Positions 9,545 to 64,000 of a stretch of 64,000 nucleotides of DNA are shown one piece after another. The notes beneath the pieces were generated by a model. The model saw only the letters and a list, made by a program, of their open reading frames with translations. It was not told the DNA's origin and searched no databases. The translations under genes were made by a program, and so were the position numbers. This DNA comes from a virus, in IMG/VR virus record IMGVR_UViG_3300045988_135589, positions 1 through 64,000 of that record. One strand, 5' to 3'. The first letter of the stretch is position 1. Every line of letters begins with the position of its first letter.

Positions 9545-9790
9545 ATGCATAATAGCCAAAAGCTATTCCGATTATTAGCCTAAGTGTTGAAACAAACACT
9601 ACGTTATTTAAGAATAGATAGTTACCTGCGGATGTTTGCCCAAGTCTGTAGCTCTAAGGTAAGTGATTAAACAGTTCTGGTATTCAGGAACAGTGTTGCT
9701 TACAAAAAAACCTCTTATAACATTGGCGATGGGTACTAACAGAGTTTCACTCTGACTTATGTTGAATAGACATTAAAAACGTTTGTAGAT
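9545..9790 (+). ncRNA. Putative omega-RNA (IscB guide RNA) comprising a 5' guide-like segment plus a structured scaffold
   Basis: A roughly 460-bp non-coding region lies immediately 5' of iscB on the same strand. The scaffold part, about 9572-9745, has a near-copy at 22494-22671 with compensatory stem changes. The first hairpin is GTGTT-GAAACA-AACAC here versus GCCTT-GAAACAG-AGGC in copy 2. Just upstream is a promoter-like 15-mer, TTTGTATCGTATTAT (9532-9546). Confidence 0.55.
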
Positions 9791-56210: not shown

Positions 56211-59065
56211 TATTTGGTCCTCCTTCTTCTTTTAATTTCATCATCTTCTTCATTTAAACTTCTCAAGTAAGGTGTGGAATAATCACCCATATTCATCACA
56301 TCCTGATTACCTTGAACGTAAATAATTTGACCACTTGGAAGCATTCTCATATTTGGAGCTATGGAAGCTATGGTATTCAACGATGTACGAACATTGAACT
56401 TATTCTGTATCTCGCTGTTTATGCTGTCATAATAACGAGCAAGATTTTCATCCCTTATAGCCATAGCCTTCAATAACCCAGATTCATAACGTTGCCTTTC
56501 CGCTATGTTCATATTGTCTGTCTGAACATAAGCCATTTCATTGAATCTATCAGCTTCGTTTATTTGCCTTGCGTTATTGAAATTTACTTCGTTAATATAC
56601 TTGGCTATATTGCTTCCAGCTATGGCGTTCATATTAGCCAGAATAGCAGCTCGCTGGGAGTCGGGTACGTCACCTACTGCGTCTAACTGAGCCGATGTCG
56701 CACGGTTGAGCTCGTTGATATACTGATCAGCAGATTGAAGAACCGGGTCTATTCTCGGAGCCTGATGTCTTTCCAGACCTTCTATCTCCAAGCCTGTATC
56801 GAGCGTTCTCAGCATTTCCGGGAAGATAGGACCGAACGCCTCCGGTCTGCCCTGTCCTTTAGGTCCGTTGTCTTCAACCACCTCCTCTGTATCGGTGTCG
56901 GTTGCAGTCGTAGGCGTACTTGCTTTCGGTTTTACCTCTATCCTTCCAGGAGATCCAATCTTAGGCGGTGTAAGGCCTGGTGCTATGGGACCGGCCTCAA
57001 TAGGCTTCATTTCTGGTTTAACAGACTCAAGAACGAAGTCTATTTCCGGCATTAACCCACTATCTCTTAAAGCAACAAACTTATTATAATCGGAGCCCAG
57101 AATCTTCTTAGCGGCATCAGATTTATCACCAAATAAGTCAACATAATTCTTTATCCCTTTTTCGTTTAACAATCTTTTTTGCTCTGCCGAAACAACATCC
57201 AACCCGTAATAAGAACGGGTGGCTGTTGTTTGACCAAACTTATCATCTACGGCAAATGAATTATAAGCCCGATTACCTCCGTAGCTTCCGGCATCCTGGC
57301 CCCAGAATCCGTACTCATCTCTGAATTTCTTGGCTGCATCAGCATTCGTGATAGCACCTACATCAGCTAACGCCCACAATGCATTTAATTGCCTGTTATA
57401 TCCTTTCTGAAAACCTTCTGTATCAAAATCACCATCCGTATTGTACTTATTAGCCCATCGGTTTACATCAAGCAAATTAGATACCGCCTTATTATTTACC
57501 CTGCCGTATCCTAAATTGCTTCTATGTTGTAGATTCTGATTGGCATTGACACTGGAATCGGGATTAAGAATCTGCTCACGACCACTAACATCAGATATAG
57601 TCATATTAAGAGTTCGTCCAAATAACTGATTGATAAGCTTATTGTAGCCGATAGCATTCTTTCTAAGTTCCTCCAGCTCCTTCTGAGTAGGTCCACCTTC
57701 AGCCATTTTCCTGGTTTGCTTAACATACTCGTCATATATCCAGTTCTTGGCATCTGATTCTGCAATATTAAAAGCCTTGGCTTGTTTCTTTACCTGATTC
57801 AGATCAACAACCCCGCCATCCCTGAAGAAAGCATCCATCTTCTCGTTACGCTTAGATTCTTCCTGTTTGCCATAAACGATTTCAGCGAAAGAACGAAATT
57901 GTGCTTCAAGCTCGTCTATCTCTTTCTGGTTTTCATTGACGTACTTGGAAAGAATAGAAGCATTAAGATTAGATGTATTTTTATCTTTTACATCTTCATT
58001 TTTCTCTAATCTCTTATATACACGCTCCTGATCTTCGTACTTGTCAGCCAAACCGATCTTTTTCTTATATCTATCGAGGAGTGTAGCATATGTGTCTTTT
58101 GACGTCGCCTTAATACCGTAATTTTCCCTTACGTAAGAAGCGAAATCATCATCGATAGTACGATAATCTGAAATAATATGAGCTTCAGGCAAATCAACGG
58201 GAGTGCCGCCTTCTTCATGCCTGTTACCTTTTGCCTCCATAGGGCCAACATCATCCGGAGTCAAAACATATTCTCCTTTTTCTATCTCAACATTAGCATT
58301 ATCCTCCATAGATTTAGGAAGAGGATAAATGTATTCTCCAGTCATATCGGACGTATCCATCTTCTGACCATTGCCCAAGTTTATTCCACCACCTTCACGC
58401 TCCCATCGAATAAACTGCTGCCGGCGCTCTTTTTCGAGCTTCTCTCTCGCTGCCTGCTCGTCCCTGCTGGCTGCATACGCAGCAGATGAAGCCCCCATGA
58501 TATTACGGGTAAGACCTAATCCTAAACTAATACCAGACAAGGCGGCTTGAGCCACGTTAGCACCAACCTTATTACCGGCTCTTATCCGACCAAGGCTTGT
58601 ACCGAACATTTGAGCCCTACTTCCAAGATCAGGCGAATAATATGGCATAGTCATAGGATCCAGAGGATTACCATCTTGGGAACGTTTTTCTTTAGAGGAA
58701 TCATCATCAACACCACCTACATTCATTGCATTATTAATGACTGATTTCTCTACGTTTTTAACCATGCTCCTATTATCAGCGAGAAATCCTGCATATCCTG
58801 CATCATTATTTTCAAAAAACGGATCGGATGTAGGCATACTACTAAATGGATTTATCTCCCCATCCTCTGTTTCTAAAATCACATCAGAAGGCATATATAT
58901 ATTCTGAATATCAGATTCACCCCATTTATTAACAGGTGTTCCATGATCAAGAATAGGCTGAGTAGAGGATACATTAATATCCTGTTTCTTATCCTGTACA
59001 CTACCACCAGGAGCAAATACTGGACGATTTTTTACTATTCGTAATTTCATATCATCTTTTTTCAC
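56210..59065 (-). CDS. virion structural protein, function unassigned (951 aa)
   Basis: Long ORF with a C-terminal basic tail (KRRRRTK). Confidence 0.75.
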   Translation of the reverse strand: MKKDDMKLRIVKNRPVFAPGGSVQDKKQDINVSSTQPILDHGTPVNKWGESDIQNIYMPSDVILETEDGEINPFSSMPTSDPFFENNDAGYAGFLADNRSMVKNVEKSVINNAMNVGGVDDDSSKEKRSQDGNPLDPMTMPYYSPDLGSRAQMFGTSLGRIRAGNKVGANVAQAALSGISLGLGLTRNIMGASSAAYAASRDEQAAREKLEKERRQQFIRWEREGGGINLGNGQKMDTSDMTGEYIYPLPKSMEDNANVEIEKGEYVLTPDDVGPMEAKGNRHEEGGTPVDLPEAHIISDYRTIDDDFASYVRENYGIKATSKDTYATLLDRYKKKIGLADKYEDQERVYKRLEKNEDVKDKNTSNLNASILSKYVNENQKEIDELEAQFRSFAEIVYGKQEESKRNEKMDAFFRDGGVVDLNQVKKQAKAFNIAESDAKNWIYDEYVKQTRKMAEGGPTQKELEELRKNAIGYNKLINQLFGRTLNMTISDVSGREQILNPDSSVNANQNLQHRSNLGYGRVNNKAVSNLLDVNRWANKYNTDGDFDTEGFQKGYNRQLNALWALADVGAITNADAAKKFRDEYGFWGQDAGSYGGNRAYNSFAVDDKFGQTTATRSYYGLDVVSAEQKRLLNEKGIKNYVDLFGDKSDAAKKILGSDYNKFVALRDSGLMPEIDFVLESVKPEMKPIEAGPIAPGLTPPKIGSPGRIEVKPKASTPTTATDTDTEEVVEDNGPKGQGRPEAFGPIFPEMLRTLDTGLEIEGLERHQAPRIDPVLQSADQYINELNRATSAQLDAVGDVPDSQRAAILANMNAIAGSNIAKYINEVNFNNARQINEADRFNEMAYVQTDNMNIAERQRYESGLLKAMAIRDENLARYYDSINSEIQNKFNVRTSLNTIASIAPNMRMLPSGQIIYVQGNQDVMNMGDYSTPYLRSLNEEDDEIKRRRRTK

Positions 59066-59118
59066 AAAGATAAGAGAAACGAACGAGAAAATCCAACGTT
59101 ATGGGATACGTTTAAAAA

Positions 59119-60237
59119 TCAATCATGTACGGCAGACAAACCACCCGAATCAGGATCATACTTAAGGCCGCATGCCCGTCGATAGTTTTTAAGCGCTCTC
59201 TTGTACAAAAACAGCACTGTCTTGGAAACTATTTTCTTCATAGATTTGGTTAAAACCTCTTCTGTTGAAACAGACATCAGACAGCTATTCAAAAACGACC
59301 TGACATTGGAACCGAACAAGGTCTTCACCATTTTTCTAAACGTTCTAAAAAGATATGATGCAGAAAGGGCCTTTAACCCATTGCGAACCAGTCTCTTATT
59401 TAAATACGAAACAGCCTTTTCAGATAAACATAGTCTATTCTTTCCTTCACTGTCTACCTCTGACGAAAACCACGAATATAAAGTGGTAGGATGTTTCTTG
59501 AGATGGTTGATGAAGGAAGTTATAATACCCTCTTTTAAAGCCCTTTTATGAGCTACACATGCAGCAATCTTCTCTTCTCTTTTTAAAGAGCTGTCAAGGC
59601 ATCTAAACACCGTCCTATCGTCTCCAATAAAATACTGAGGACGTTCTTCCTTAAACTTAGCCCGATAAGCGGCATATCCTTCCTTACGAAGCATATCTAT
59701 CTGAGACCGGATATAGAACCTTACACACTTTTCTTCAGCCTCTTGCACGCTTTTAAGATAAGGAACTGACTTTCTCCCATATCGAAGATAATCATAAACC
59801 ATAGCCTCAATAAAGTCATTGTACGGAAAGAATCTTCCAAATCCAAAGTTCCAAACTATGAAACATCGCACTCTATCTTTCCAGTAATCAGATATGAGAA
59901 AATTACTACAATATCTCAACTTCCTGTTTTTCTGATAGAAATGATGAGTATGTTTGTCATAAAATAGATTAAAATATCTCAAATTGCCTAAACACTGACC
60001 GGCTGGACGGCGTACTACGTTATACCCTAAGTTGCTGAAGCTATTGTATATAACTTCTATCGGAGAGACCTGCTCTTTCTTGAAGAGCTTGTCGTGTAAC
60101 TTGTGAGGATCTGTTATTTCTTTTAACTTTGTGTCCATGTTATTTTGTTGTTTTAGTGCAAAGATATGGTTTTTCATCATACGCTCAAAGAAGAAAATGC
60201 ACGGCCTTGTATCCGGTTTGAGAGAAATAGGATACAA
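59119..60237 (-). CDS. hypothetical protein, aromatic/basic-rich (372 aa)
   Basis: ORF between structural genes, directly downstream on the - strand of the structured non-coding region 60238-60892. It contains an HTHH and an FIGDD segment. I could not assign a fold. Confidence 0.55.
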   Translation of the reverse strand: MYPISLKPDTRPCIFFFERMMKNHIFALKQQNNMDTKLKEITDPHKLHDKLFKKEQVSPIEVIYNSFSNLGYNVVRRPAGQCLGNLRYFNLFYDKHTHHFYQKNRKLRYCSNFLISDYWKDRVRCFIVWNFGFGRFFPYNDFIEAMVYDYLRYGRKSVPYLKSVQEAEEKCVRFYIRSQIDMLRKEGYAAYRAKFKEERPQYFIGDDRTVFRCLDSSLKREEKIAACVAHKRALKEGIITSFINHLKKHPTTLYSWFSSEVDSEGKNRLCLSEKAVSYLNKRLVRNGLKALSASYLFRTFRKMVKTLFGSNVRSFLNSCLMSVSTEEVLTKSMKKIVSKTVLFLYKRALKNYRRACGLKYDPDSGGLSAVHD

Positions 60238-60463
60238 GGTTTTTTTGTTTTATGACGGTTTGGATAAGAGACGGGAAAACGGTTCTGAACGTAACCGACT
60301 GACCGTCAGGGGTGGGACAACAAATCTTGAATTAAAACTACGCCTATAAATAGTCTCCGTTTTCCTTAATATTAAGACCATTTTCAATGATCTTACCCAT
60401 TATATTATTTATATTATTTTATATACTTTACCATTTATTCATATAATTGTTTGCAGTGAATGA

Positions 60464-60638
60464 ACTTAACGACTGAAGGGAGTTAAGTGAGTGAACGGAT
60501 TGACAAATTACTTTTTCCGTCTATTGTATTGTTTGCCTAATTGTGTTAAAAGATTGAGTATCGTGACCGAAGGGAACGATGCGAAAGAACATATAATATT
60601 TAAAAACGACTGAACCTATCGACTGAAGGGAGATAGGT
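60464..60638. other. Three hairpins with covarying stems and identical 11-nt loop GACYGAAGGGA
   Basis: Hairpin 1 is ACTTAAC-GACTGAAGGGA-GTTAAGT at 60464-60488. Hairpin 2 is ATCGT-GACCGAAGGGA-ACGAT at 60560-60580. Hairpin 3 is ACCTATC-GACTGAAGGGA-GATAGGT at 60614-60638. A GACGGGC-GTCCAT-GCCCGTC hairpin lies at 60701-60720. Confidence 0.6.
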
Positions 60639-60892
60639 GATGGAGTGACGTTAATAATTATATTAGATAGCCAGTGGAGAATTAGGCAGGCTGGTAGGCG
60701 AGACGGGCGTCCATGCCCGTCAGGACAGTGGAAGTACGTAGGTCTGTTCTGTTAAACCAAGACGATGATAGTTCCATCCTTCACGAAATTGCACAAAAAA
60801 GCCGGATTATCTTGATATCGTTCTTCAACCTTCGGTATCCGCATAACGAGTCTCAAATCCGGCTTCGCTTCATGAGAAATAAAATAATTGTT

Positions 60893-63800
60893 CTAATTGT
60901 CAGTGACGCCTTTAATGCGAAGTTGTATATTGGGAAGCACGGCATTAATCAAAGCCATTTTCTTATCCTCTTCGCTTTCTTTTTCATGCTGTTTATACAT
61001 CATGCTGTAATCGCTGTCATCACCATCCTTTTTCCCGTCTAACGTCAGTAAATGATTTACGATGTCCTTACCATACGTTTCAGTCCATGTACGGAATCTA
61101 TCTTCCTCGGACTGTCTCTCCGGGGACGGAGCTTCCGGGTTAGGGAGGGCGGCTGCCACTTCTACCTCTGGAAGTGTTACCGATGCTGCTATTTCTCCAT
61201 CATCTCCGAATCCCATTTGACCATACGAGGATACGGAATTTTCTTCAATATCCAAACCAAGATTTTTAGCAACTTCCATAGCATAGTTATAACGGTCATC
61301 GTTTCGTATCACACTTTTATGAGGGCGTCCTGCCCCTTGGTTCCAAGCTACTACAGCATCCTTAAGGTTATCGGCGTTCATAAAATCCTGCCGGCTGTAG
61401 TTGTAATACCCTGGTCCTTTTTTCCCTTTTCTTGTGTATAAGAAATTAGAATATCCGGTTTTCCCTTCGTATTCGTCAGCTAAGAACTCAAGTTGGTCTT
61501 TGAATGTGGGTGTAGAATGACCTTTCTTTTTGGCGTGCTTGAACAACTTATCCATGCGCTCATTATGCCATTGTTGTATGCCGTATGATGTTCTGTTGTC
61601 TCCATATATGTCATCTTTAAGACCGGATTCAGCCATGAGGTTACCTATGATGGCGAGCGCCTGTATCTTAGACATGCCTCTCTTATTAGTAAAGTAATCA
61701 TATGCTTCACGCTGCTTGCCAATTACGCCACCTTCTTCAGCAAACACAATGCTTTTACTCGGTTTATCGTTTTCATAGAAATACATGAATTTCCTACTTG
61801 GAATCCTGTGTGATGCATCTTTCGGATCTCCGTATTCTTTTTTATGATCAATAAAACGAAAACCAGCTTTGTATGGAGTAAGCTTCCCTCCGTTTCTTTT
61901 CTTTTCTTTTTTAGGATCAGCAATCCTATCCCCTACATAGTAGGCCCCTAATCCCACCGAGGCGTGATCTGTTATCCATTTGGCAGCCTTTTTATAGTCT
62001 GATATGGATTCAAAATATTCTTTCATCTCATTATCATACCCATAATCCTTCAAGTAATTTCTGGCTGCATATTCTAACATTTCAGGCGTCACTTCTTGAG
62101 CATCATCGGTCAAACCAAAATAATTTTTAATCTGAGTTCCTCTGGCCGCCATTTCCGTAAAATGATCCTCTTTGAAATAATCTTTTACTTCATCATCATC
62201 TATCTTATTCAAATCAAATCCGTTTTTATCTGCGCCTGAATCTGGATAATGAATTTTGTGTTCCACTTCGTGACTTTTCACAAAATTCTCTACATCCTTG
62301 TTAGATATATTGGGGTTTCCTTCGAGAAATAAATCAATGAACTTATCAACGTTTTTAGACCTGATTATATTTCCATTTAATACCCCATATCCAGATATTT
62401 CATCTATTATCTCCCTTATCTCATCATCAGAGTATTCATCTCCTAAAAAATACTTTGCATCCCTGAAAACTTTCGGATCATCCCAATCATATATGTTGGT
62501 ATCAAGCATATCCGGATCTGGCTCCCCATTTTTCATCCTTAACTTCTCCCCAGTAAGCCTTTCATAGGCTCCAGAGAAAAGTCGCTTTTTATGATTTTCC
62601 CATGCCTCGCCTATAGGAGATGCTGGTTTAGCATATTCAGGCAACGATCCTAAAAGTTCTTTATCTCTTTGAGATAGTTTTTTAGTAGCTCTTTTCGCTT
62701 GCATTGCTTTTTTCGATATACCTCCTACAAAAGGAATAAGACCCATAGCGGCCATAACCATTCCAAGCGCATCTCTATCTATGAAAGAATCATACGCATC
62801 CTTGACGTCCATTATATCACCTACTACAGGAACGCCTCCAGCTACAATTTCGTTTATATTCACGCCATCAACAGGGATCGTACCATAATTAGCATTTTCA
62901 TTTATTCCGCTTGACCCTACTGATGTATTATCCTTAGATGCAATGTACCTATATTTAGATCCGTTTTCTTCATCTACGGCTCCTCCTTCTTTTTTTATAT
63001 TGGTATTGTATCTCTTTCCATTCCATGTAAATTCCTTAAGACCTCTTTTCCTGGCTTCTTTAAAGGCTTCGCCTCTTGTAGTGGAAATCGGGTCTTGTAA
63101 TTCAAGATCGTTTTTTATGTCAAGAATAGCATCAATAATACTATTATTCTTTTTATCAGCATCATCTGAATTATTAACATTATCCGTAACATAAGATTGG
63201 CTTATCAAGTTTGATACGCTCTTTCTGTTTTTATAAGTTCCTTCTTTATCTGATGGAGCTTCAAAAGCATATACAAGTGGATACGAATAATCTGTATCTG
63301 GATCTTCTGACATAAATTCGTTTACTGCATGAATGGCTTTATCATATTTAGTATCCTTTATACTATACATCCCAGCATCTTGAACATGATCATAAAATCT
63401 GTCTATCATATAGTTGATATATCCACGCTTATCGCTCTTAAATCTCTCTTTATCTCTTTCAAACTCTTTTGGCGGATATCTTTTGTAATATTCTTGAAAA
63501 AGTCCCCTAAATTTTCCATCCTCAGATATAGCGTAGGGGTTTCCACCAGATTCTTCAATAATATTTCCAAGTACGGCTTCTATCTGGCGTTGATTAAAAC
63601 CTTTATCATATAAAGCATCATAGATCATATTCACCCCTTCTACGTCCATAGTACGATGCTTACCCTTACCCACACGCTTCATATTTTCATATTTGGATTT
63701 GAATAAATCCCAATCTATTTCCGGCTTAGAAGAATCCCCTCCTTGTTTTTTGGATCTTATCTCCATCCTTTTATCCAAATCATTCTTTGAATCAATAATG

Positions 63801-63991
63801 GATCTAAACAGGATCTTGTTTGGATCATTCTCTTCGTATGGGATTTTATCTTCTACATAATCCCTTATTTCAAAAGGATATCCTATTGTATCAAGAGTCT
63901 TAGTAACAACCCCAACACCAAAAGGCTGATCGCTTCTATAAAAATCGTACTTATCTTTCACAACCATCCTACCTCTATCATCACGGTACAT
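60893..63991 (-). CDS. virion protein with two SLT-like lytic transglycosylase motifs (1032 aa; N-terminus at window edge)
   Basis: The first motif is LGNIIEESGGNPYAISEDGKFRGLFQ. The second is IIGNLMAESGLKDDIYGDNRTSYGIQQW. Each has an ES...G(L/I)xQ pattern typical of family-1 lytic transglycosylases. By analogy it is probably an ejected peptidoglycan-degrading internal or tail protein. Confidence 0.55.
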   Translation of the reverse strand: MYRDDRGRMVVKDKYDFYRSDQPFGVGVVTKTLDTIGYPFEIRDYVEDKIPYEENDPNKILFRSIIDSKNDLDKRMEIRSKKQGGDSSKPEIDWDLFKSKYENMKRVGKGKHRTMDVEGVNMIYDALYDKGFNQRQIEAVLGNIIEESGGNPYAISEDGKFRGLFQEYYKRYPPKEFERDKERFKSDKRGYINYMIDRFYDHVQDAGMYSIKDTKYDKAIHAVNEFMSEDPDTDYSYPLVYAFEAPSDKEGTYKNRKSVSNLISQSYVTDNVNNSDDADKKNNSIIDAILDIKNDLELQDPISTTRGEAFKEARKRGLKEFTWNGKRYNTNIKKEGGAVDEENGSKYRYIASKDNTSVGSSGINENANYGTIPVDGVNINEIVAGGVPVVGDIMDVKDAYDSFIDRDALGMVMAAMGLIPFVGGISKKAMQAKRATKKLSQRDKELLGSLPEYAKPASPIGEAWENHKKRLFSGAYERLTGEKLRMKNGEPDPDMLDTNIYDWDDPKVFRDAKYFLGDEYSDDEIREIIDEISGYGVLNGNIIRSKNVDKFIDLFLEGNPNISNKDVENFVKSHEVEHKIHYPDSGADKNGFDLNKIDDDEVKDYFKEDHFTEMAARGTQIKNYFGLTDDAQEVTPEMLEYAARNYLKDYGYDNEMKEYFESISDYKKAAKWITDHASVGLGAYYVGDRIADPKKEKKRNGGKLTPYKAGFRFIDHKKEYGDPKDASHRIPSRKFMYFYENDKPSKSIVFAEEGGVIGKQREAYDYFTNKRGMSKIQALAIIGNLMAESGLKDDIYGDNRTSYGIQQWHNERMDKLFKHAKKKGHSTPTFKDQLEFLADEYEGKTGYSNFLYTRKGKKGPGYYNYSRQDFMNADNLKDAVVAWNQGAGRPHKSVIRNDDRYNYAMEVAKNLGLDIEENSVSSYGQMGFGDDGEIAASVTLPEVEVAAALPNPEAPSPERQSEEDRFRTWTETYGKDIVNHLLTLDGKKDGDDSDYSMMYKQHEKESEEDKKMALINAVLPNIQLRIKGVTDN

Positions 63992-64000
63992 GGTAAAACT

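Follow-up and report, generated by a model that had tools for sequence, protein, structure and literature searches.

Between two minus-strand genes in a 64,000-nt stretch of viral DNA (positions 1 to 64,000 of IMG/VR record IMGVR_UViG_3300045988_135589; hereafter the window) lies a non-coding gap in which three hairpins with different stems present one and the same apical motif, raising the question of what recognizes these hairpins and whether they act as RNA or as single-stranded DNA (ssDNA). An earlier reading made from the letters alone (the sequence-only reading) had proposed that a factor recognizes the hairpins in one of these two forms, which is still the right class of explanation. 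We find that the hairpins are the cores of repeated modules whose pairing is backed by covariation, that the element is conserved in ~290 related phage contigs alongside a gene for an ORFan protein of 339 aa, and that it is a well-supported candidate for a structured RNA. The gap measures 754 bp (60139-60892) rather than the 655 bp first reported, since the neighbouring gene begins at an ATG at 60138-60136: the TTG start of a 372-aa open reading frame (ORF), which had been taken as the adjacent gene, is not used, and the ATG opens 340 codons including the stop, giving a 339-aa protein that matches the annotation of phage csAssE-Sib (OR575929.1; 151 kb, human gut). The gap region is 95.7% identical to csAssE-Sib, whose record carries no annotation beneath the matching stretch; the annotated products nearby are a tail lysozyme, large structural proteins, and a muzzle protein, along with a protein related to Ro60. 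On the basis of that record's name and the muzzle-protein annotation we call the phage crAss-like. Few viruses of the human gut are as abundant as the crAss-like phages, whose non-coding RNAs are nearly uncharted.

All three hairpins were located in the sequence (Table 1). The motif GACYGAAGGGA occurs exactly three times in the window, always on the + strand and within 161 nt, while by our own arithmetic ~0.06 exact matches would be expected in 64 kb; chance clustering was ruled out by this concentration. The stem of the second hairpin, described previously as 5 bp (ATCGT/ACGAT), has 7 bp, and comparison with relatives extends what had been taken for 25-nt elements to modules of 45 nt, referred to here as units 1 to 3. 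Scanning the window with a model of the unit returned the three clustered units and no other site. For unit 1, RNAfold unaided yields exactly the proposed structure, which consists of GU:AC, a tandem G·A, 2 bp, a tandem G·A, the stem ACUUAAC/GUUAAGU, a tandem G·A, C:G plus U·G, and a GAA triloop. Unit 3 is a paralogue of unit 1, with which it shares a 51-nt direct repeat; its stem, ACCUAUC/GAUAGGU, differs at two positions and both changes are compensated. Unit 2 has the stem GUAUCGU/ACGAUGC (one U·G), the apex GA-CC-GAA-GG-GA, and tandem G·A pairs outside.

Table 1. Features of the element and its surroundings (positions in the window).
Feature	Positions	Strand	Description
Hairpin 1 core	stem 60464-60470 / 60482-60488	+	apical 11-mer GACTGAAGGGA at 60471-60481
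Hairpin 2 core	stem 60558-60564 / 60576-60582	+	stem GTATCGT/ACGATGC with one G·U; apical 11-mer GACCGAAGGGA at 60565-60575
Hairpin 3 core	stem 60614-60620 / 60632-60638	+	apical 11-mer GACTGAAGGGA at 60621-60631
Hairpin unit 1	60454-60498	+	covariance-model match 59 bits; RNAfold -11.4 kcal/mol, z -4.1; minus strand -4.5
Hairpin unit 2	60548-60592	+	covariance-model match 51.4 bits; fold -11.8 kcal/mol, z -4.35; minus strand -5.0
Hairpin unit 3	60604-60648	+	covariance-model match 56.3 bits; fold -13.7 kcal/mol, z -4.6; minus strand -7.3
Promoter-like site	60418-60447	+	TTTATA-18-TATAAT; ends 7 nt before unit 1; 10/12 against the sigma-70 consensus
Linker of units 1 and 2	60499-60547	+	GCCTAATT (60535-60542) could pair with AATTAGGC (60680-60687), 9-bp complement
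G-rich 3' domain	60668-60728	+	TAGCCAGTGGAGAATTAGGCAGGCTGGTAGGCGAG, hairpin GACGGGC (60702-60708), loop (60709-60714), GCCCGTC (60715-60721), then CAGGACAG; GC skew +0.3 to +0.43
Upstream block CTGACCGTCAGGGGTGGGACAACAAATCTTGAATTAAAAC	60299-60338	+	with mini-hairpin CTGA-NNN-TCAG; conserved in lineages A, B, and C, partly in D and E
Hairpin CCTTGTATCC/GGATACAAGG	60205-60247	+	conserved loop GGTTTGAGAGAAATA (14-15 nt), then T7-G; just upstream of the promoter of the 339-aa gene
ORFan gene, basic 339-aa protein	59119-60138	-	divergent from the element; accompanies it in every locus with enough flank
Promoter of the 339-aa gene, Bacteroidetes-type	60159-60189	-	TTTG (60189-60186), 19 nt, TATCTTTG (60166-60159)

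A search with the 339-aa protein gave 80 IMG/VR loci, with proteins 96-99% identical and intergenic regions 92-97% identical to those of the window; its more distant homologues opened up further lineages, and ~200 more loci came from a pattern of the 3' domain and a metagenome scan. We distinguish lineage A, the window's own; lineage B (L087 and L096, with 84% and ~60% protein identity, respectively); lineage C (L082-L086, ~62%); lineage D (L209, ~42%); and the distant lineages E (L213) and F (L211). The apical motif is kept in related genomes, so that the lack of loop conservation named by the sequence-only reading as grounds for refutation was not observed. In the homologues P0030 and P0033, from L211 and L213, the first hairpin with its T-run and some motifs are kept, and the units could not be confidently aligned.

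Comparison across the lineages modifies the sequence-only description of an identical 11-nt loop on covarying stems: the apical motif is conserved and the stems vary, as described, but the loop is not single-stranded, as inner pairs form within it. In the 11-mer, G1·A11 and A2·G10 can form tandem sheared pairs. Pair 3:9 covaries, being C:G in most units, G:C in GAGCGAAGCGA (lineage C), and A:U in GAACGTAGTGA (lineage B), while pair 4:8 is C:G or U·G and, in unit 3 of some relatives within lineage A, is lost on both sides together (GACGAAGGA). The true apical loop is a GNA triloop (GAA, GUA, or GGA), and in lineage D the apex reads GA-C-GUGA-G-GA, with a GNRA tetraloop replacing Y-GNA-G. Below the apex, the stem of unit 2 is compensated across lineages (GUAUAUC/GAUAUAC in B, AUAUCGU/GCGAUAU in C), and in lineages B and C the main stem of units 1 and 3 is interrupted by a fourth tandem G·A, these units also having a bulged U. 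The helix continues beyond the 7-bp stem through conserved flanks (5' AGUGAnUGA, 3' GAGnGAAC) in the order tandem G·A, two pairs, tandem G·A, U:A, G:C. This register of the outer helix is supported because in unit 1 of lineage B Watson-Crick pairs replace the outer tandem G·A positions (GUUUCGGAAUC/GAUUUCGAAAC); lineage B variants also include a series from U:A through U·G to C:G.

Among 23 distinct units from three lineages, 90.8% of cells pair, compared with 67.0±2.0% after shuffling (0/500) and 29-39% when the partners are slid, and changes on both sides are seen in eight of the nine pairs; with the four outer pairs added, 86% of cells are paired. An independent metagenome set of 150 model matches (29 distinct) gave 93.4% paired versus 72.3% shuffled (0/500). 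This confirms that the three hairpins are real and non-random, with a structure backed by covariation.

The strand on which this structure acts can be read from several asymmetries. By our own count, the main stems of 47 unit variants contain 23 G·U cells and 0 A·C cells; the whole segment folds with a z of -3.25 on the + strand and -1.5 on the minus strand; and the local GC skew across 60400-60750 is +0.2 to +0.43, opposite in sign to that of the flanking genes. Together with the energies of the individual units, these observations place the function on the + strand, which is antisense to both flanking genes, the minus strand carrying every gene of the window from ~31.5 kb to 64 kb. A minus-strand RNA was ruled out by its weaker folding energy and by the G·U versus A·C count.

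The element keeps close company with the gene for the 339-aa protein. A non-coding gap of 550-1100 nt lies upstream of this gene in every locus with enough upstream flank, and in 80 metagenome loci the unit model gave 207 matches, every one of them on the strand opposite to the gene and at a distance of 300-580 nt on its upstream side. In lineage C the second neighbour is a DUF6808 gene and not the lysozyme gene; therefore the element follows the 339-aa gene rather than the lysozyme gene. In many contigs, two modules of element plus gene paralogue are separated by ~36 kb and have different gene neighbourhoods (L220/L262, L222/L277, L225/L267, L218/L243, L219/L251, L226/L286, L250/L280, and L089/L096); most often one is of the A or B type and the other of the C type. 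A single module is present in csAssE-Sib. Tandem duplication has also acted within the element, where the number of units ranges from two (L209) to four (L136, L230, and L267) and where L129 has a duplicated 3' domain. The tie to the adjacent gene of unknown function that the sequence-only reading had listed among its possibilities is thus borne out by the position of the element upstream of homologues in two neighbourhoods and by the duplicated modules, and the comparisons show element and ORFan gene to be inherited and duplicated as one unit.

The gene itself heads an operon of large virion proteins, and its promoter, read from the sequence by the Bacteroides consensus as TTTG and TATCTTTG, has equivalents in lineage C (TTTG-N20-TACATTTG) and lineage D (TATATTTG). 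Homologues of the protein fall into 16 clusters in a word-indexed search and 23 clusters in a full scan of 1.8 billion representatives. No match to the protein was found in Pfam, PHROG, PADLOC, or PDB sequences, and two AlphaFold models (predicted local distance difference test scores of 60.7 and 75.3) gave no convincing fold match.

Further conserved features surround the units. The promoter-like site ahead of unit 1 sits in a spacer of 21% GC that is near-invariant across lineage A; despite sequence divergence, lineages B, C, and D keep the layout of TTTAnn or TTAAnn, 17-18 nt, a TAtAaT-like box, and 4-7 nt before hairpin 1, from which we infer promoter function. By eye, a TAAT-like box also precedes each internal unit, and may be a promoter or part of the repeat. 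After the last unit, the 3' domain has the conserved order TAGCCA..GGCAGG..GGTAGGCGAG, hairpin, CAGGACAG, in which the motifs flanking the hairpin are invariant in lineages A, B, and C and recognizable in D. All lineages have the hairpin itself, each with a stem whose sequence is unrelated to that of the others (A, GACGGGC/GCCCGUC; B, GCCGUC/GAGGC; C, GCUGU/AUGGC; D, GAGGCG/CGCCUC). The sequence-only reading had recognized this GC-rich hairpin one base away from its position at 60702-60721, as well as flanking repeats, CAGTGGAGA (60672-60680) and CAGTGGAAG (60726-60734), which are present but restricted to the window's own lineage. The complement between the linker and the 3' domain, with 5-7-bp equivalents in lineages B, C, and D by eye, would form a long-range helix tying the units into one fold; this helix is a candidate only.

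On the far side of the gap, the stem of the hairpin at 60205-60247 differs among seven lineage variants and its pairing is always kept, in one case (lineage C', L086) through three U·G pairs that are workable on the + strand only, while the loop consensus GTTYGNGA(N)AAUA and the T-run followed by G are conserved. This hairpin could be a terminator or attenuator on the + strand, or a Bacteroidetes-type -33/-7 promoter. An intrinsic terminator scan of 59900-61000 found none, with no T-run after any of the three units; the hairpin at 60205-60247 has its T7 but a 15-nt loop, beyond the limits of the scan. On the antisense strand of the opening codons of the 339-aa gene, at 60124-60131 (+), is a perfect Bacteroidetes -7 motif, TAnnTTTG, which lineages D (L209) and F (L211) share with A and to which B and C have near matches. 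It could drive a cis-antisense RNA over the start codon that ends at this hairpin.

Taken together, the conserved non-Watson-Crick features, the drifting Watson-Crick pairs, and the variable number of modules favour an RNA that binds several protein copies. The abundance of G·U, the exchange of G·A for Watson-Crick pairs, the GNRA alternative, and the conserved promoter-like site are as expected of RNA, and the element is probably a + strand RNA. We hold with about even confidence that the segment is the gene for a structured + strand non-coding RNA with repeated protein-binding modules, leaving aside which protein binds. Transcription, the transcript ends, protein binding, and the partner are what we infer here: the -35/-10-type site at 60418-60447 would start a + strand RNA made up of three tandem 45-nt modules (2-4 in relatives) and the G-rich 3' domain, ending near 60730. 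Each module would offer one non-Watson-Crick surface, formed by regularly spaced tandem sheared G·A pairs and the apical C-Y-GNA-G-G cap, with the Watson-Crick pairs of its helix free to vary, and the RNA would act as a scaffold or decoy that binds protein multivalently, each module taking one protein or protein subunit. The basic ORFan protein would be the most economical partner because element and gene are inherited and duplicated as a unit, an identification that is tentative and that we judge more probably wrong than right. Four points weigh against an RNA of this kind. No clear + strand terminator follows the 3' domain in the scan of 59900-61000; a TATAAT-type site is unexpected given the host-type TTTG/TAnnTTTG promoter of the neighbouring gene; the long-range helix between 60535-60542 and 60680-60687, taken with its extension in the minimum-energy fold, shows no compensatory change within lineages, and several single changes disrupt its pairing; and ssDNA, too, can stably form G·T and G·A pairs and GNA or GNRA loops, so that a role as DNA is possible.

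As DNA, the modules could be ssDNA hairpins on the template strand that a phage polymerase, for example the crAss-type virion RNA polymerase, uses as promoter or priming signals in the way of phage N4, a reading that we consider unlikely. The hairpin strand (+) is the template strand of the downstream minus-strand operon of the 339-aa and virion proteins, and the 7-bp stems, the three clustered copies, and the C-GNA-G apex of the cap resemble those of N4, whose promoters have a 3-nt purine-rich loop on a 5-7-bp stem; the C-GNA-G cap belongs to the extra-stable d(GCGAAGC) class. A good template for the crAss-like virion polymerase gp66 is ssDNA, and no motif is known for the early promoters of this enzyme (bioRxiv 10.1101/2020.03.07.982082). 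The strand agrees with the N4 analogy raised by the sequence-only reading, but the distribution of the hairpins and the chemistry of their stems do not. No further copy exists in the 64 kb, ~42% of the genome by the 151 kb of csAssE-Sib, and in all loci the element is found only upstream of the 339-aa gene; each helix holds 3-4 tandem G·A and frequent G·U, and its complement folds at -4.5 to -7.3 compared with -11.4 to -13.7 kcal/mol (RNA parameters), which would make extrusion costly. Moreover, the gene already has a host-type promoter, the site is in the virion-gene block and not the early region, and the conserved 3' domain and outer helices would be left without a role. The crAss-type virion RNA polymerase is a relative of the eukaryotic RNAi polymerase QDE-1, and a version of this proposal in which the modules are ssDNA signals for that enzyme, as an independently arisen analogue of N4 promoters, is more doubtful still; if true, the element would be the first recognizable promoter or primer signal of this polymerase class. 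Any action of the hairpins as ssDNA would bear on start-site selection by the crAss virion polymerase. A packaging or origin role, also listed by the sequence-only reading, gained no positive support, and we regard as improbable a transcription-primed replication origin at which a structured G-rich transcript forms a persistent RNA-DNA hybrid, as in ColE1 RNA II or T4 ori(uvsY) and ori(34). Such an origin would accommodate the 21% GC tract with a promoter-like site directly upstream, the three 5' stem-loops followed on the RNA-like strand by a G-rich, C-poor stretch that is longer in lineage C, and the high conservation that includes the AT-rich part. Against it, the large-scale GC skew changes sign only at ~31 kb, at the switch of gene orientation, with no persistent shift at 60.4 kb; in many genomes there are two copies, separated by 36 kb; and strict co-inheritance with an ORFan lacking similarity to replication proteins would go unexplained unless the protein is the initiator.

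Each of the remaining alternatives, like the origin, fails at least one of the tests made here. A TROVE gene ~3 kb away in csAssE-Sib, beside two tRNA genes, could point to a Y-RNA-like partner of a phage Ro60 protein, bacterial and phage Y RNAs being modular stem-loop RNAs encoded near rsr. This is very improbable: no Y_RNA, YrlA, or other Rfam family matches the element even at E<=10, the predicted folds have no terminal helix joining the 5' and 3' ends, and the 8-kb flanks of lineages B and C contain no TROVE gene. Equally improbable are a cis element of the minus-strand transcript (a terminator cluster, leader, or processing sites) and double-stranded DNA (dsDNA) regulator sites, for which a place flanked by the upstream gene's terminator (60865-60793, -) and the next operon's promoter, where regulatory DNA is to be expected, would be suitable; on the minus strand over half of the folding energy of the modules is lost, with A·C wherever the + strand has G·U, no T-run accompanies any of the three hairpins, and covarying stems are not expected of dsDNA sites. 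We give least credence of all to an antitoxin RNA of the type III toxin-antitoxin style that neutralizes the adjacent protein. Repeated structured units in variable number beside a protein gene, with a hairpin between them and co-duplication, are what such a system would present, but all units lie on the strand opposite to the gene, whereas ToxIN antitoxin repeats lie on the same strand as the toxin; the spacing is irregular (94 and 56 nt) and the units are not near-identical direct repeats; the protein has no ToxN, AbiQ, CptN, TenpN, or other defence-model match (Pfam, PADLOC) and no fold match; and the gene heads a virion-protein operon.

Searches for a known family or a counterpart elsewhere were negative. 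With Rfam 15, the region 59000-62000 at E<=10 gave three chance matches, all outside the element; at gathering thresholds the whole window and the csAssE-Sib locus (L001) gave only HEARO and tRNA matches elsewhere than the element; and five loci of other lineages at E<=5 gave none inside it. Thus no Rfam family matches the element, and no tRNA or tmRNA was found in the window. A coding region was ruled out, as the ORFs do not exceed 72 aa and lineage indels do not keep a reading frame. Antisense pairing with the 5' region of the 339-aa mRNA was rejected, as its energy in lineage A (-22.5 kcal/mol) is that of shuffles (-23.7±3.4), with similar values in lineage C. A strict pattern of the unit had 0 matches in 185,579 bacterial and archaeal species genomes; a looser one had 36 in the same genomes, equal to the chance expectation by our own arithmetic and none with convincing stems. 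A host counterpart or mimicry target was rejected, the three matches in a Bacteroidales metagenome-assembled genome (MAG) proving to be 9-nt simple repeats. A non-coding stretch in a Bacteroidales MAG (OY781105.1; L313, 4247-5939) has 9-nt tandem repeats, AAGAGACTG and GACTGAAGG, in inverted arrays flanking three 240-nt repeats; these contain the 9-mer of the hairpin cap without stems and are probably unrelated to the element. A literature search found no paper on csAssE-Sib or on Ro60 in crAss-like phages.

Several observations concern the surroundings. The upstream gene (60893-63991, -) is a single 1032-aa ORF in the window; the corresponding csAssE-Sib region is annotated with a tail lysozyme of 806 aa and a 137-aa ORF that overlaps it, and versions of 990 and 1173 aa occur in relatives. 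Its terminator (60793-60865, -) is a long-range stem, AAGCCGGATT/AATCCGGCTT, compensated in lineage B, which encloses a conserved insert of 47 nt; the CCTTCGG palindrome inside the insert is CCGAAGG when read on the minus strand, a heptamer identical to that of the hairpin caps. In csAssE-Sib, which is nearly identical to the phage of the window, a TROVE-domain (Ro60-like) protein (Pfam E 2.6e-14) is encoded at 11601-13235 of L001, ~3 kb from the element and adjoining tRNA-Lys and tRNA-Tyr genes; its place would fall just past window position 64000. The window also contains two HEARO RNAs (RF02033) above the Rfam gathering threshold, at 9549-9740 (+; 107.8 bits) and 22423-22667 (+; 95.2 bits); HEARO is an RNA associated with IscB/HNH endonuclease ORFs.

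Co-inheritance of the element with an ORFan gives a testable handle on the functions of both, through the questions of RNA binding by the protein and of control by the pair over the expression or assembly of the downstream virion proteins, and comparison with known systems indicates where the element stands. Like the N4 promoters of the Schitoviridae, it has short variable stems and a conserved 3-nt purine-rich loop closed by C:G, in three clustered copies on the template strand of the downstream genes, and the phage carries a virion polymerase that favours ssDNA. Unlike in them, two pairs and a tandem G·A intervene between its triloop and the 7-bp stem, so that the 'loop' of that stem is 11 nt; its helices are extended, rich in G·A and G·U, and attached to a 3' domain, while those of N4 are perfect inverted repeats; and the crAss-type polymerase is unrelated to the T7-like enzyme of N4. 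With Y RNA and YrlA it has in common a modular stem-loop architecture and, in a close relative, a nearby TROVE gene, but it has no covariance-model match or Ro-binding terminal helix and is linked to a different gene. ToxI-type antitoxins likewise have repeated units in variable number next to the gene of the presumed partner, a hairpin between, and joint inheritance, whereas the units of the element are on the opposite strand, irregularly spaced, and mutually diverged, and the protein is dissimilar to known toxins. CsrB/RsmZ sponges are similar in being stand-alone non-coding genes with several stem-loops that share a motif and vary in number; the motif here, however, is a structured G·A/GNA cap in which the G's are paired (C3:G9, Y4:G8) rather than a single-stranded GGA, G9 changes to C or U with a compensating partner, GGA is lost in GAGCGAAGCGA, and we know of no CsrA-like partner in the presumed Bacteroidetes host. 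As in K-turn-like and d(GCGAAGC) motifs, 5'-GA/3'-AG tandem mismatches lie between Watson-Crick pairs and a GNA triloop (GNRA in lineage D) is closed by C:G, but the internal loops are symmetric 2x2 without a 3-nt bulge, hence not K-turns, and to our knowledge no motif described so far has 2-bp steps alternating regularly with tandem G·A over the length of a 45-nt hairpin. The element matches no described or curated RNA family while being of a familiar kind, a probable phage non-coding RNA with repeated protein-binding hairpins; what is new is the architecture of its modules and how closely it is paired with an ORFan gene placed first in an operon of large virion proteins.

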